Shown in pieces: positions 4,072 to 17,645 of a DNA stretch of 64,000 nt. How positions within the stretch are numbered: the first letter of the stretch is position 1; every line of letters begins with the position of its first letter. The notes under the pieces were generated by a model. That model was not told the origin of the DNA. It made no database searches and was given only the letters and a program-made list of their open reading frames with translations. Location of the stretch: the NCBI GenBank assembly GCA_965153355.1, contig OZ231126.1, positions 8,494,001-8,558,000 of the forward strand, given 5' to 3'. A program made the position numbers and the translations under genes. The DNA comes from Flaccisagitta enflata (Eukaryota).

Positions 4072-4476
4072 ATGAACGCCGGTAAACTGAGGTCTCATGA
4101 AGATAACCGTCGAATTTGCTGCGCGGGATGCGGCAAGAAAGATCTAAAGTGTCACAACATAACCCCTACCATCGAGACCGTTTTGAAAGAGGAAGTTTAC
4201 GATGGCTACAACTCATCTGATTGCTACTTTCCAAGCGGAATCTGTAGCACGTGCCGGGCAAGTCTTTTTATTGCGAGAAAGGGGAGCGTCGTGCCTGCTG
4301 TTGTCCGCGACCGTTGGAACTCAATGGATTACTCCAAATTTCGCCCGCCTTCACGTTCTACTCCTTGCATGTGTCAAATTTGTCAAGTTGTTCGCTTCAA
4401 GTGGGAGAAAGTTGAAGAAGACGGCAAGCCTGAAATTCCAAGAGTCATCGACACTCAAAACGAAAAAGAGGCCGAG
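4072..4476 (+). CDS. Chapaev transposase exon 1 (Chapa zinc finger)
   Basis: MNAGKLRSHEDNRRICCAGCG...YFPSGICSTCR...PCMCQIC; 3' boundary uncertain (phase-0 GC donor AG|GCATGC, or GT at 4489). Confidence 0.75.
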
Positions 4477-4646
4477 GCATGCTGTCATGTCATACTTGTG
4501 CACGTTTATGAGCGGAGTGTGTGTGCATATCAATGATTTGCTTGTGTAGAACCTAGTAAAGATATTTCTGCTTTGCAACTCGCGGCCACAAAACTAACCC
4601 TTTTTGGTTAGTGTTATTCATTTTGCAATGTTAATGGATTTTTCAG

Positions 4647-4920
4647 CAACCATCCGCCGAACTGAAACCGTCTCAACCAAAGAAAGTTCTTGATTCCGTA
4701 GTGATTTGCCGCAAATGCCGATCTGAAGTAGGTCGCGGAAAACCGCATCATTGCACTGAGGCTCAGGGAGTAAAGAATTTGACTCAAGAAGCCTTGCAAC
4801 TCGGAAGTCATTTTGGTAACGAGGAATCCAAGTCTTACCAAAGAGTCACCACTAACCTCATCAAAGTTGCCGAAACCAAAGAAAATGTTCCCAGAGGAGA
4901 GAAGATGTCATTGGCGACGG
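4647..4920 (+). CDS. Chapaev transposase exon 2
   Basis: tttcag acceptor; ICRKCRSEVGRGKPHHC zinc motif; G|gtactt phase-1 donor. Confidence 0.8.
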
Positions 4921-5269
4921 GTACTTAATAAAATGAGCATTATGCACAAACACGCGCATTTAAGTGCTTATACAAACGCTCAAGCACATTCATATATACA
5001 ATCTCCCAACGCCCATCCCAAATTGTCTCAGTGATTTGCATCAGCTGAAATATCTCTCACACACACACACACACACACACACACACACACACACACACTC
5101 ACTCTCTCTCTCTCTCTCTCTCTCTCTCTCTCTCTCTCTCTCTCTCTCTCTCTCTCTCTCTCTCTCTCTCTCTAAATTCAGTATTGATTGCATTCAACGG
5201 CCATACACTGACAAAAACGACTGGCCTGCTTTGTTTCATGCCTGGTTCCTTTAATAACCGCCATTTTAG

Positions 5270-5910
5270 GGGGAAAGCCTCTCACTGTTGTGGCCGGCAC
5301 AAGTGATAATAAAGCCAAACGTCAAACCGGTCAACGTCAGCTCACGGCAAAAGATCTCCGTGAATTGCAAGCTGAAATAAACGCCCCAAATGAAACCATG
5401 TTCAAGATCATGACCACAGTCCGCAAACGCATTGGTCATAAGGCAATTGAAAAACATGCCAATCAGGCAATTGTTGAAGGTGGAAAGACCCTAGAGGATT
5501 TTTACGTATCCGAAAACATTTTGATGGAAGTCAAGAAGAACGAAGCTGATGTAATGGAGGAAAAAGAAAACATTGAAATCGGCACAGAGAAGACGACAAA
5601 AGGGACGCCGGCAAAGGGGAAGAAGGGAGGAGGAAAAGAACAGAAGGGAAAAGTCTCCACAAAGAAAGTCAGCGTGGAAGAACCCAAGGATATCATCTTC
5701 GTGCAAGACCCTTTAGAGTTTTTCAAATTCATTTGCGAGGCGAGAAGTTTTGATCCATCAAAAGTCATTGTGCGAATTGCGTGGGATGGGGGTGATGGGA
5801 TGTTTCTTGTTGTCGCTTCGGTGTTCGTAATGGGCGAGGAAGATGACGACGACGATGAAGATGACGATGACGATGATAAAGATAAAGATGGCGTGAAACC
5901 GGAAGGCCTT
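5270..5910 (+). CDS. Chapaev transposase exon 3, 5' part (first catalytic D, WDGG)
   Basis: ttttag acceptor gives LATG|GKPLTV; VRIAWDGGDG; ends at the Helentron junction. Confidence 0.85.
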
Positions 5911-6009
5911 TTTAGATGCGTCCTCGCATCTCTATAAGAGGGTCTGTCGTATGTATAGGGAACGCGAAAATTTCAAAATGCGATTTCTAAGGTTTTCTCT
6001 TCATTTCTC

Positions 6010-6300
6010 TTCATGTCTCTTATATCTCTTCATGTCTCTTATGTCTCTTATATCTCTTTTGTCTCAGTTGTCTCAGTTGTCTCTTTTGTCTCTTTTGTCT
6101 CTTTTGTCTCTTTTGTCTCTTTTGTCTTTTTTGTCTCTTATGTCCCTTATGTCTGCTATGTCTCTTATATCTCCTATGTCTCTTTTATCTCCTATGTCTC
6201 TTATATCTCCTATGTCTCTTATATCTCCTATGTCTCTTATATCTCCTATGTCGCTTATGTCTCTTATTTCTCTTATGTCTCTTATGTCTCCCACGTGTCT
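6010..6300. repeat. 9/18-bp minisatellite (GTCTCTTAT / GTCTCTTTT) inside the Helentron 5' region
   Basis: Directly visible tandem units. Confidence 0.85.
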
Positions 6301-6512
6301 CCTAGCTGTCTTCTACGTGTCTTCGTGTCTTCTCTTGTTTCCTTGTGTTTTTTTATATGTCATTACTTTGTGGCGTATTTCTCTCTCTCTCTCTCTCTCT
6401 CTCTCTCTCTCTCTCTCTCTCTCTCTCTCTCTCTCTCTCTCTCTCTCTCTCTCTCTCTCTCTCTCTCTCTCTCTCTCTCTCTCAAACGGAATCCGATTTC
6501 GACTGGCTCAGT

Positions 6513-15168: not shown

Positions 15169-15457
15169 GGCTGGATGAGGAGCTACTCTACATCCTTAAG
15201 CTCATACTTGCTTAAATACTTGTTTGGACAGACAAACTAATGGACGCACTGAAGGACGGATCAACATAGCAATGTGTGTTAGGGTGGTCACGAAATGGGG
15301 TCAAATTTGTATCACACAACCAAAATTATGATCAGATCTCTCTCTCTCTCTCTCTCTCTCTCTCTCTCTCTCTCTCTCTCTCTCTCTCTCTCTCGCGCGC
15401 GCGCTTTTTGTCTCCGTATTTCTGGAAAATATCAAAAATAAAAATGAATATCATCAG

Positions 15458-15621
15458 GCGTCAAAAAATGCTTTCTAATGGCGGTTGTACGGAATATTCC
15501 TGAGACGCACGGCAATCTGGAGAAAATTGTCACAAGGCTTCAACTTGATCGAGTCAAGCTTCTCTTCAAAATCACTTTACCCATGGATCTGAAATGTGGG
15601 AATGAGGGTCTTGGATTGTCG
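15458..15621 (+). CDS. Chapaev transposase exon 4 (second catalytic D, MDLK)
   Basis: catcag acceptor; GVKKCFLMAVVRNIPETHGNL...LPMDLKCGNEGLGLS; gtgagg donor. Confidence 0.85.
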
Positions 15622-15665
15622 GTGAGGATAATCAGATACCTACTTGAATTCACAGGGACAAGTCG

Positions 15666-15924
15666 GGGTGTGTTTCTACTGATTACAAGAATCTCGATTG
15701 TTCCTATGAAACGCGTTTTAGGCGTGAACACATCTTCATGAATTTGAATGGTCCCACAGGGGAGTGAGCAAAGTGAGTGAACAAGCAAAGTGAGTGAGCG
15801 AGCCAATGAACATAGCAAAGCAGAGCGGAGCGAGTGAGCAGATTGAGCGGTGCGAGCGAACGAACATTGCGAGCAACCGAGTGGTCCGTTCAAAACGCGA
15901 TTTTCTGTGACTAGAAACACGCCC
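15666..15924. mobile_element. ~260-bp MITE with 14-bp TIR GGGTGTGTTTCTA(G); superfamily unresolved
   Basis: Ends ...CTAGAAACACGCCC; other copies at 27957-28239, 35409-35993, 43705-43985 and a partial one at 24380-24615; TSD not clean. Confidence 0.75.
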
Positions 15925-16641
15925 TTGGTCGGATGGCCATTCCATCGGTCAGTGACAGAGGAGGAAGAAAAACAGAAAAGGAAAGCAAAAAAGAAAAAGA
16001 AAAGATAAAGAAAGTAAAAGTAGAGACGAGAAAAAAAGAAAAAAAAAGGAGAAGAAGATAAAGCAAAGAAACAAAAAAAAAAGAAAAAGAAAACGAGGAA
16101 GCAGTAGACGAAGCAGTAGACGAAGTAGGGAAGAAGAAGAAGAAGAAGAAGAAGAAGAAGAAGAAGAAGAAGAAGAAGAAGAAGAAGAAGAAGAAGAAGA
16201 AGAAGAAGAAGCAAGGACGAAGAAGAGGAAGACGAAGAAGAAGAAAAAGAAGAAGAAGAAGAAGAAGAAGAAGAAGAAAAAGAAAAAGAAAAAGAAAAAG
16301 AAAAAGAAAAAGAAAAAGAAAAAGAAAAAGAAGAAGAAGAAGAAGAAGAAGAAGAAGAAGAAGAAAAAGAAGAAGAAGAACAACGACGATGACGACGACG
16401 ACGACGACGACGACGGAGAAGAAGCACTAGACGAGGATAAAGGCACAGATGATGGATAAAGGCACAGATGATGGATAAAGGCACAGATGATGGATAAGAA
16501 GAAGAAAATGTGACAAAAGAAAATTTAAAACAAAAACAAAAGGAAAAAAAATGAAGAAAAGAAGAAAAGAGAGAGCAGGAAGGGAGAGTAAGAATTATGG
16601 TTTAGATATTGAAGAATAAATCGCAATGCTTTGATCTGCAG

Positions 16642-17104
16642 CCTCATGGGGGAAAATTTGCTTGTCTATATTGCGAATCGGAACGCGAGCTGAAAGGTGG
16701 TAAAGTCCGTACGTTTGGATCTCTTCGAAAACATCATGCTCAATTCCTGAAGGCTGGGGGAAGACTCCGGGATGCGTCTAAATATGCGAACTGCATTAAC
16801 AAGTGCCTCCTCAACGAAGACGATGCGACGCGCGTGATCGACGTCATTCCACCCGAGGAATTGCATCTGCTGATTGGGGGCGTCCAAGTTCATCTCAATT
16901 TGCTGATCAACATTTACGGTCTTCAGTTCGTGGAAAAGTGGACCAGGCGCGTTGGGGTAGTTAGGCACGGCTACCAGGGTGGGGGATACGACGGAGTCAA
17001 CAGCAAGAGGATCTTGAATCTGGTGGACGATCTCAGCGCCTATCTGCCGCCTAACTGTGCCCCAATCATCGCCTCCTTGAGGGCATTCAAATCGATTGTT
17101 GAAG
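16642..17104 (+). CDS. Chapaev transposase exon 5
   Basis: ctgcag acceptor; PHGGKFACLYCE...RTFGSL...PPEELHLLIG...GYDGVNSKRIL; phase-1 GT donor at 17105. Confidence 0.85.
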
Positions 17105-17316
17105 GTTGTTAAGAAAATTGTCTTTAATTCCAACTATTGTCTCTTGATATCCAAAGACTGTTCATTCTCGTGATTGATATTTTTCGCGTGTGATTTAGTG
17201 AGTGTGTGTGTGCGGAGGGGGGGGGGTTGGTTGTGGTTGGTCGTTGGAGGCCCCTGCCCACCCATCTACAAAGAAATTGTGACACCGCACCACTTGTTGA
17301 CTTTTTCAATTCCAAG

Positions 17317-17645
17317 GATGCTTTGGTGCCCATTTACACGCTGACTACCGCGATTTCATCGATACATTCCGATCCAAGTTTGAGGAACTGATTGATTACG
17401 CCAGAGACATCTTCAATGTAGAGGTCAAAGTTTCGTGGAAAATACACATTGTGGTAGCCCATGTTTCCCAGTGGCTGTACAGTCACCCAACAGGTCTCGG
17501 ACCATATGCTGCCCAGACCTGCGAAAGCGCTCACTCAGACTTTAAGCGTACAAAAAAGCGATTTTTGGTGTCAGAATCAAATCCGACTCATCAGGCCAAA
17601 TTACGTCGATCAGTTGTTGAATATAGCTCACGGCACGTCACGTAA
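17317..17645 (+). CDS. Chapaev transposase exon 6 (catalytic E)
   Basis: ccaag acceptor; GCFGAHL...SWKIHIVVAHV...GLGPYAAQTCESAHSDFK...stop. Confidence 0.85.

Follow-up and report, generated by a model that had tools for sequence, protein, structure and literature searches.

The window analysed here, 64,000 nucleotides of Flaccisagitta enflata DNA (NCBI GenBank assembly GCA_965153355.1, contig OZ231126.1, positions 8,494,001 to 8,558,000 of the forward strand; positions below count from its first nucleotide), is eukaryotic, repeat-rich DNA in which a cut-and-paste transposon carries a rolling-circle element of the Helentron kind inside its transposase gene. The stretch 2861-18697 is very probably one Chapaev-type transposon (CMC group; Transib/RAG1-like DDE), whose transposase of 764-778 codons is encoded by six exons and is split in exon 3 by the Helentron (Table 1). 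A preliminary description, made from the letters alone, had proposed this arrangement, and the anatomy of both elements, the restored reading frame, the colinearity with a protein family, the motif set and the 3' end of the Helentron all bear it out. As it had also stated, the listed open reading frames (ORFs) are disconnected fragments. A full RAG1-like transposase gene emerges once the Helentron is excised. The span of 4072-17645 that it gave is, however, the coding part only, and the transposon itself extends to terminal inverted repeats (TIRs) and a target-site duplication (TSD) further out. The case is an ordinary nested insertion, one mobile element within another.

Table 1. Features of the nested elements, in window coordinates (left to right).
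Feature	Position	Strand	Basis
TSD, left copy, GTGT	2857..2860	.	Direct reading; equals 18698-18701
Left TIR	2861..3515	+	TIR alignment; holds 193-bp subterminal tandem repeats
Exon 1, Cys-rich N-terminus	4072..4476, or end at 4488/4497/4503/4518	+	Listing of splice sites and phases
Exon 2	4647..4920	+	Acceptor TTTTTCAG|CAA, phase 0; donor CGG|GTACTT, phase 1; tblastn matches
Exon 3, left part, with first Asp of triad (model D399)	5270..5910	+	Splice sites and phase, tblastn, alignment
Autonomous Helentron in exon 3, 8,785 bp	5911..14695; start 5910 or 5911	+	Pfam domains; contigs diverging after 14695; TTTT(T)AGATGCG 5' ends elsewhere
Helentron 5' subterminal inverted repeat TAGATGCGTCCTC, 13 nt	5913..5925	+	Pairs with 14661-14673
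UCH ORF, 515 aa	6854..8401	+	PF00443, E 1e-16
ORF of 1951 aa: Rep (Helitron_like_N), PIF1 helicase, AP endonuclease (Exo_endo_phos)	8320..14175	+	PF14214, 1.1e-15; PF05970, 6.3e-25; PF03372, 3.2e-10
Helentron 3' subterminal inverted repeat GAGGACGCATCTA, 13 nt	14661..14673	+	Followed by 22 nt ending GGCCTTGTT
Exon 3, right part, 19 nt: KPKLDS and first base of Gly	14696..14714	+	Frame; alignment of conserved motif
Non-autonomous Helentron-like element (HINE) in intron 3	14724..15168	-	Inverted copy of Helentron 5' end; contig and read departures
Exon 4, second Asp of triad (model D490)	15458..15621	+	Phase, tblastn, alignment
Exon 5, C(2)C and LH motifs	16642..17104	+	Phase; 712 homologues at E<=0.001; alignment
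Exon 6, H(4)H, Glu of triad (model E725), stop codon	17317..17645	+	Phase, tblastn, alignment
Right TIR	18049..18697	-	TIR alignment
TSD, right copy, GTGT	18698..18701	.	Direct reading

The outer transposon lies on the plus strand and measures 15,837 bp, or about 7.05 kb when the Helentron is subtracted. Its ends read CACTG...CAGTG, with CACTGCTCTG running inwards from 2861 and the reverse complement ending at 18697; the outermost 20 nt, CACTGCTCTGAAGCCATACC, are identical and inverted at 2861-2880 (+) and 18697-18678 (-), and this word matches twice in the window against 0 matches expected (100 shuffles). These termini open TIRs of about 650 nt that start with CACTGCT, in which 564 of 647 aligned positions are identical with three gap events, and whose tips are the best preserved part (three mismatches in the first 122 nt, 97.5% alike); the 193-bp subterminal tandem units sit within them. 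The flanking duplication is of 4 bp, a 5-bp reading failing to match, and the flank is GT-rich, so that a chance match of GTGT is likelier than for a random 4-mer. The TIRs together with the duplication rule out a domesticated host gene.

Joining nucleotide 5910 to 14696 brings 5899-5910 and 14696-14714 together to read PEGLKPKLDSG, in the frame of the long ORF of exon 3. From there, the donor at 14714 (CAG|GTTCAA, phase 1) matches the sole fitting acceptor, 15458 (phase 2), introns 2 to 5 are all of the GT-AG type with compatible phases, and the six exons form one open frame with a single terminal stop in all five variants of exon 1. Together, the 19 nt of exon 3 that follow the Helentron and the start of exon 4 encode LDSG|VKK, which aligns with the (F/L)xDSGVKK motif conserved in the family, so that homology confirms both the frame of this small piece and the splice from 14714 to 15458; the Helentron joint directly precedes this conserved block. 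The total of 2295 nt and 764 aa given at the outset holds only when exon 1 ends at 4476, where the intron would begin with GC; the in-phase GT donors at 4488, 4497, 4503 and 4518 give 2307-2337 nt and products of 768, 771, 773 and 778 aa, respectively. The start Met of the model is aligned with a Met in 26 of 27 homologues.

A scan of 1.84 billion representative proteins with the ORF of exon 5 returned 712 relatives at E<=0.001, 211 of them at E<=1e-10. Many of these are 660-710 aa long and match at about residues 410-570, and those looked up came from ENA/Logan contigs of about 3 kb or were 'uncharacterized protein' entries of Hydra vulgaris. When 34 homologues of 600-860 aa were compared with the window by tblastn, this locus alone was matched among the best 12 queries, each of which matched three to five exons; the matches run from exon 1 to exon 6 in order, and the homologous proteins end where the ORF of the window ends. 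Moreover, a profile hidden Markov model (HMM) of 30 full-length homologues matched the spliced product with 501.5 bits (E 2e-154) over positions 4-669 of 669. The order of the exons in tblastn and this end-to-end match make it clear that the six-exon gene is not a product of chance. Aligned by MAFFT with 27 homologues of full length, the spliced product spans 638-674 positions and is 27-29% identical to the ten closest; it keeps 51 of the 63 columns that are conserved at 90% or more. In the alignment of the 30 homologues, it keeps 19 of the 20 invariant columns and 33 of the 46 nearly invariant ones. Family members differ in the length of the stretch to the left of the joint. With exon 6 as query, word-based protein searches found nothing (28 candidates in the longer class, one in the near-length class), and ten full-length homologues run against Pfam matched no family at E<=0.01.

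The motifs expected of such an enzyme are retained. D399, D490 and E725 belong to columns that 27, 27 and 26 of the 27 homologues conserve, respectively, and judging by their RAG1-like spacing would form the catalytic triad. The zinc motifs C509-x2-C512 and H699-x4-H704 are present, as are all of the N-terminal Cys/His columns, and the LH motif corresponds to L575-H576; the C(2)C, LH and H(4)H motifs all fall in conserved columns.

The element inside exon 3 is identified as a Helentron by the Rep, PIF1 helicase and AP endonuclease domains encoded in one ORF, by the UCH ORF upstream, by the subterminal inverted repeats and by the lack of a duplication in its flanks (GGAAGGCCTT and AAACCTAAAC). 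The repeats of 13 nt fall within the 12-16 nt by which HLE2 elements are recognized, and UCH is listed among the recurrently captured domains in PMC11417382, which together with PMC4067079 describes the features of Helentrons and HLE2. The left repeat contains a hairpin in which AGATGCG pairs with CGCATCT just downstream (-7.4 kcal/mol, z -4.17, none of 200 shuffles as good). The terminal 3' stem-loop, at -1.9 kcal/mol (z -2.3), is weak, and 10 of 200 shuffles did as well. The interior contains tandem repeats and microsatellites, and runs of T are found at the ends. Where the UCH and Rep/helicase ORFs overlap in different frames, a 45-nt direct repeat (96%) occurs at 8294-8338 and 8376-8420, with copies 82 nt apart; deletion of one such unit would not rejoin the two ORFs, since by simple arithmetic the frames disagree. 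Both ORFs may be linked by an intron.

The 3' end of the Helentron is common to many copies. In two DNA runs, 136 contigs (X1) and 73 contigs (X2) match up to 14695 and then continue in unlike, T-rich sequence, the agreement beyond that point being 0.39 and 0.38, and in the last 115 nt or so of the element the word depth climbs several hundred-fold; read placement covered 13500-15960 of the window. Because these copies diverge only after 14695, the final GTT belongs to the Helentron. At the other end, TTTT or TTTTT precedes AGATGCG at four other loci (a metatranscriptome contig, two sets of RNA reads and the copy that lies in reverse orientation in this window), so that of the five Ts found here no more than the first or the first two are of host origin. 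The number of terminal Ts varies among Helentron copies (Thomas et al.; PMC4067079), and it is uncertain whether the 5' boundary should be shifted by one T, to 5910 or 5911. Under the join of 5910 to 14696 the host reads GGCCTT and then AAACCTAAACTC, with nothing apparently lost at the joint. GGCCTT followed by AAACC is the sole one-T choice that keeps the frame, and it equals the product of an insertion between two Ts (5909|...|14695). Such a T-T site fits only if 14695 is a host T; the flanks of other copies beyond 14695 are T-rich.

Taken together, an autonomous Helentron of 8.8 kb encoding UCH and Rep/helicase/AP endonuclease proteins would have integrated into exon 3 at CTT|AAA by rolling-circle (HUH) transposition, in the same orientation as the transposase gene and without duplicating its target. 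The coding sequence is thereby split, and any read-through transcript would run into stop codons. A smaller, non-autonomous relative, the HINE of Table 1, starts 9 nt past the next splice donor, that of intron 3, in the opposite orientation.

The outer element carries every one of the Chapaev hallmarks given in PMC4079192. These are a TSD of 3-4 bp, termini of the form 5'-CAC...GTG-3', the DDE triad and a list of motifs taken there from Yuan and Wessler 2011, C(2)C, LH and H(4)H; the same paper cites Kapitonov and Jurka 2007 for the superfamily and Yuan and Wessler 2011 for the CMC group. In PMC4411706, Chapaev, Chapaev3, Transib and TransibSU are treated as one RAG1-related superfamily, Hydra is among the species named in the legend to a tree of the Transib superfamily, Chapaev and Chapaev3 being two of its four clades, and Chapaev proteins are described as having an N-terminal Chapa zinc-finger domain in common with the N-terminus of RAG1. 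The Cys/His columns of exons 1 and 2 are conserved in the family; zf-AD is matched by 13 of 30 homologues and RAG1_imp_bd by one (E 0.033), and exon 1 of the window itself had no Pfam match. Among 177,635 PDB sequences, the family profile found its best match in the amphioxus RAG1L transposase 6b40 (E 0.006), with the C(2)C and H(4)H motifs aligned with their RAG1L counterparts. In a structure search of the ESM Atlas, the predicted fold matched vertebrate RAG1 clusters with a TM score of 0.55 by query over 462-468 residues, and closer neighbors were unnamed clusters from Cnidaria and Porifera.

Several results weigh against this reading of the locus. With the transposase exons, Pfam gave only chance-level matches at E<=0.1, and the donor of exon 1 is uncertain, five in-phase candidates remaining. 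A Lys that is invariant in the family (K360 of homologue P0030) and lies near the first Asp of the triad is a Leu in the window protein, and AA stands four residues before the triad Glu, where the family has a nearly invariant SE. About 6% of a polyA RNA run of the same organism (X11) contained no read on the right part of exon 3 or on exon 4, and none confirming the splice junction within 13500-15960, an absence that in such a fraction of the run says nothing firm on expression. The exact joint is scored almost alike in three forms by the family HMM, with 501.5 bits for 5910 joined to 14696, 501.3 when GTT (14693-14695) is added and 500.5 when TTT (5911-13) is added. Two metagenome scans yielded no empty site or uninterrupted paralogue: 221 pattern matches to the exon-3 protein were found and none was confirmed, and the 22-nt stretch to the right of the Helentron had no match. 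Finally, the assignment to the Chapaev type follows from a comparison with published hallmarks, and the match to RAG1L is marginal at its E-value of 0.006.

The transposase had been thought probably still competent when the Helentron arrived, which is an overstatement: 19 of 20 invariant columns are kept but the invariant Lys is replaced, and neither a transcript nor an uninterrupted copy was seen in the material above. Former competence is possible. It is rather doubtful that the Chapaev copy was already dead, or had never been active, by that time, its open frame reflecting a young copy instead of a working enzyme. Such a history would fit the change of one of the 20 invariant columns, the 13 of 46 nearly invariant columns that differ, the AA in place of SE beside the triad Glu, the lack of RNA reads on the two exons that flank intron 3 and the second insertion 9 nt from the donor of that intron. 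It fits poorly with 764-778 codons free of stops and frameshifts, with the retention of the triad, of C(2)C, LH and H(4)H and of all N-terminal Cys/His columns, and with TIR tips that are 97.5% alike beside an intact TSD; at only about 28% identity to full-length homologues, the Leu and AA may moreover be specific to the lineage. The 477 X11 reads that were placed all match the stretch just in part, within the repeat of 14745-15242 and in one Helentron bin (depth 0.58). DNA contigs carry exon 4 with its intron borders (370 nt with three differences in X1; 157 nt with one difference in X2).

The restored frame had also been taken as independent confirmation of the Helentron ends. The join of 5910 to 14696 is indeed in frame, but frame alone does not fix the ends, since the joins with GTT or TTT added fit as well. 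It is unlikely, nevertheless, that the sequence before insertion differed from this join, through ends misplaced by one to three bases or through host bases lost or gained. Room for such a shift is left by the five Ts before AGATGCG, where other loci have four or five and the literature reports a variable number (PMC4067079), by the near-equal scores of the in-frame alternatives, by the variable length of family proteins left of the joint, and by the word GGCCTT, which the left flank (5905-5910) has in common with the interior of the 3' end (14687-14692). Against it stand the copies from two DNA runs that agree up to 14695 and then diverge, the TTTT common to four other loci, which leaves the host the first T or two at most, and the fact that among one-T choices only the sum of 5910 and 14696 keeps the frame.

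That the outer element belongs to a RAG1/Transib-like lineage outside Chapaev proper, such as a DUF1280-type or unnamed CMC branch, is improbable. The Pfam family DUF1280 is weakly matched by five of 30 homologues (best 1.6e-4), the Atlas neighbors are unnamed cnidarian and poriferan clusters, the comparison with Chapaev drew on described hallmarks, and TIRs of 650 nt are absent from the hallmarks listed in PMC4079192. On the other side, all of the hallmarks in that list are present, homologues occur in Hydra, a genus in the tree legend of PMC4411706, and the 4-bp TSD corresponds neither to the 5 bp of Transib nor to the TWA of Chapaev3. Transib is described in PMC4411706 as having a 5-bp TSD, 13-bp TIRs in the TransibSU example and termini that resemble the recombination signal sequence. 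The 4-bp TSD and the TIRs of about 650 nt speak against Transib proper (5 bp, 13-bp TIRs) and against Chapaev3 (TWA).

In the HINE of intron 3, the 5' terminal 30 nt are 93% complementary to the 5' end of the Helentron. Its 3' end reads CCCGGGCTTGTT on the minus strand, and its borders are marked by a contig of X8 that departs at 14724 and by 98 X11 reads at 15168; it contains repeated blocks of about 195 bp, and in the DNA runs its word depth is extremely high. Its ends recur in RNA reads that stem from other loci. In run X11, 144 RNA reads join 14831 to 15139 (14799-14831 and 15139-15168), and represent transcribed Helentron 5' ends elsewhere, in reverse orientation, not this gene.

Six host bases, GGCCTT at 5905-5910, recur three bases before the 3' terminus of the Helentron (14687-14692), by chance or as a hint of target choice, and the element in reverse orientation also has GCC ahead of its T run. 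Target recognition by base pairing or end mimicry is a property of the HUH transposases of IS200/IS605. It is very improbable that the Helentron chooses its target by likeness to its own 3' end in either of these ways, which, if true, would provide a first handle on how Helentrons pick sites.

The neighborhood is a pile of mobile elements. Intron 4 contains a repeat of very high depth at 15741-15960, with words like GAGCGAGTGAGC, and a purine-only low-complexity tract of about 400 nt at 15965-16380. Just outside the left end of the Chapaev element, at 2240-2287 (-), lies a Helentron- or HINE-like 5' end (TTAGATGTGTCC...GCATCTCCATAAGAGGGTCT), adjoined by a (GTCG)n array at 2509-2791. An ORF of 456 aa at 19019-20389 (+), some 320 bp beyond the right end of the element, has a reverse-transcriptase domain (RVT_1, E 2.3e-24). 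Further away, at 55494-55528 (-), a sequence like the Helentron 3' end (CACGCATCTG...GCCTTGTT) has two mismatches to the pattern, with 0.06 expected by chance. Scans for tRNAs and Rfam families over 2000-19500 found nothing.

Each of the two elements is new, yet of a known superfamily, and nothing changes for either superfamily; the disruption of one transposon by another is common in repeat-rich animal genomes. For annotation, the locus illustrates that removal of a nested rolling-circle element can reveal a complete gene where the ORF track shows fragments. In addition, this copy supplies the full anatomy (ends, TSD, long TIRs and six exons) of a Chapaev lineage for which there is no Pfam model, and could seed the annotation of its uncharacterised relatives, of which there are hundreds in cnidarians, sponges and metagenomes from the sea.

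Compared with known systems, the outer element shares with Chapaev transposons the duplication of 3-4 bp, the CAC...GTG termini and the DDE triad with its C(2)C, LH and H(4)H motifs; like theirs, its gene has several exons and encodes a Cys-rich N-terminus, its host is an animal, and it has relatives in cnidarians. It differs from their description in its very long TIRs (about 650 nt) with 193-bp subterminal repeats, and its protein shares only about 28% identity with the homologues of full length. Chapaev3 elements (Merrow and Garfield; PMC4079192) have the motif set and the CAC...GTG ends in common with it, but are described there with a 3-bp TWA duplication between A and T, in contrast to the 4-bp GTGT found here. 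Transib, the RAG1L of ProtoRAG and RAG1 show the same order of residues, with D, D, C-x2-C, H-x4-H and an E about 21 residues further on, whereas the similarity is marginal and the window element lacks a RAG2-like gene. The inner element agrees with Helentrons and HLE2, as characterized in PMC4067079 and PMC11417382, in its Rep, PIF1 and AP endonuclease ORF, its upstream ORF of the protease type, its 13-nt subterminal repeats, the 5' hairpin nested in the left repeat, the terminal T runs, and the internal tandem repeats and microsatellites. It departs from them in that the 3' stem-loop after the right repeat is weak and the downstream flank begins with A, unless the final T is assigned to the host. 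With HINE/DINE-1 elements, as with Helentrons and HLE2, this locus shares insertion without duplication, apparently at a T-rich site, and the many short derivatives with common ends.

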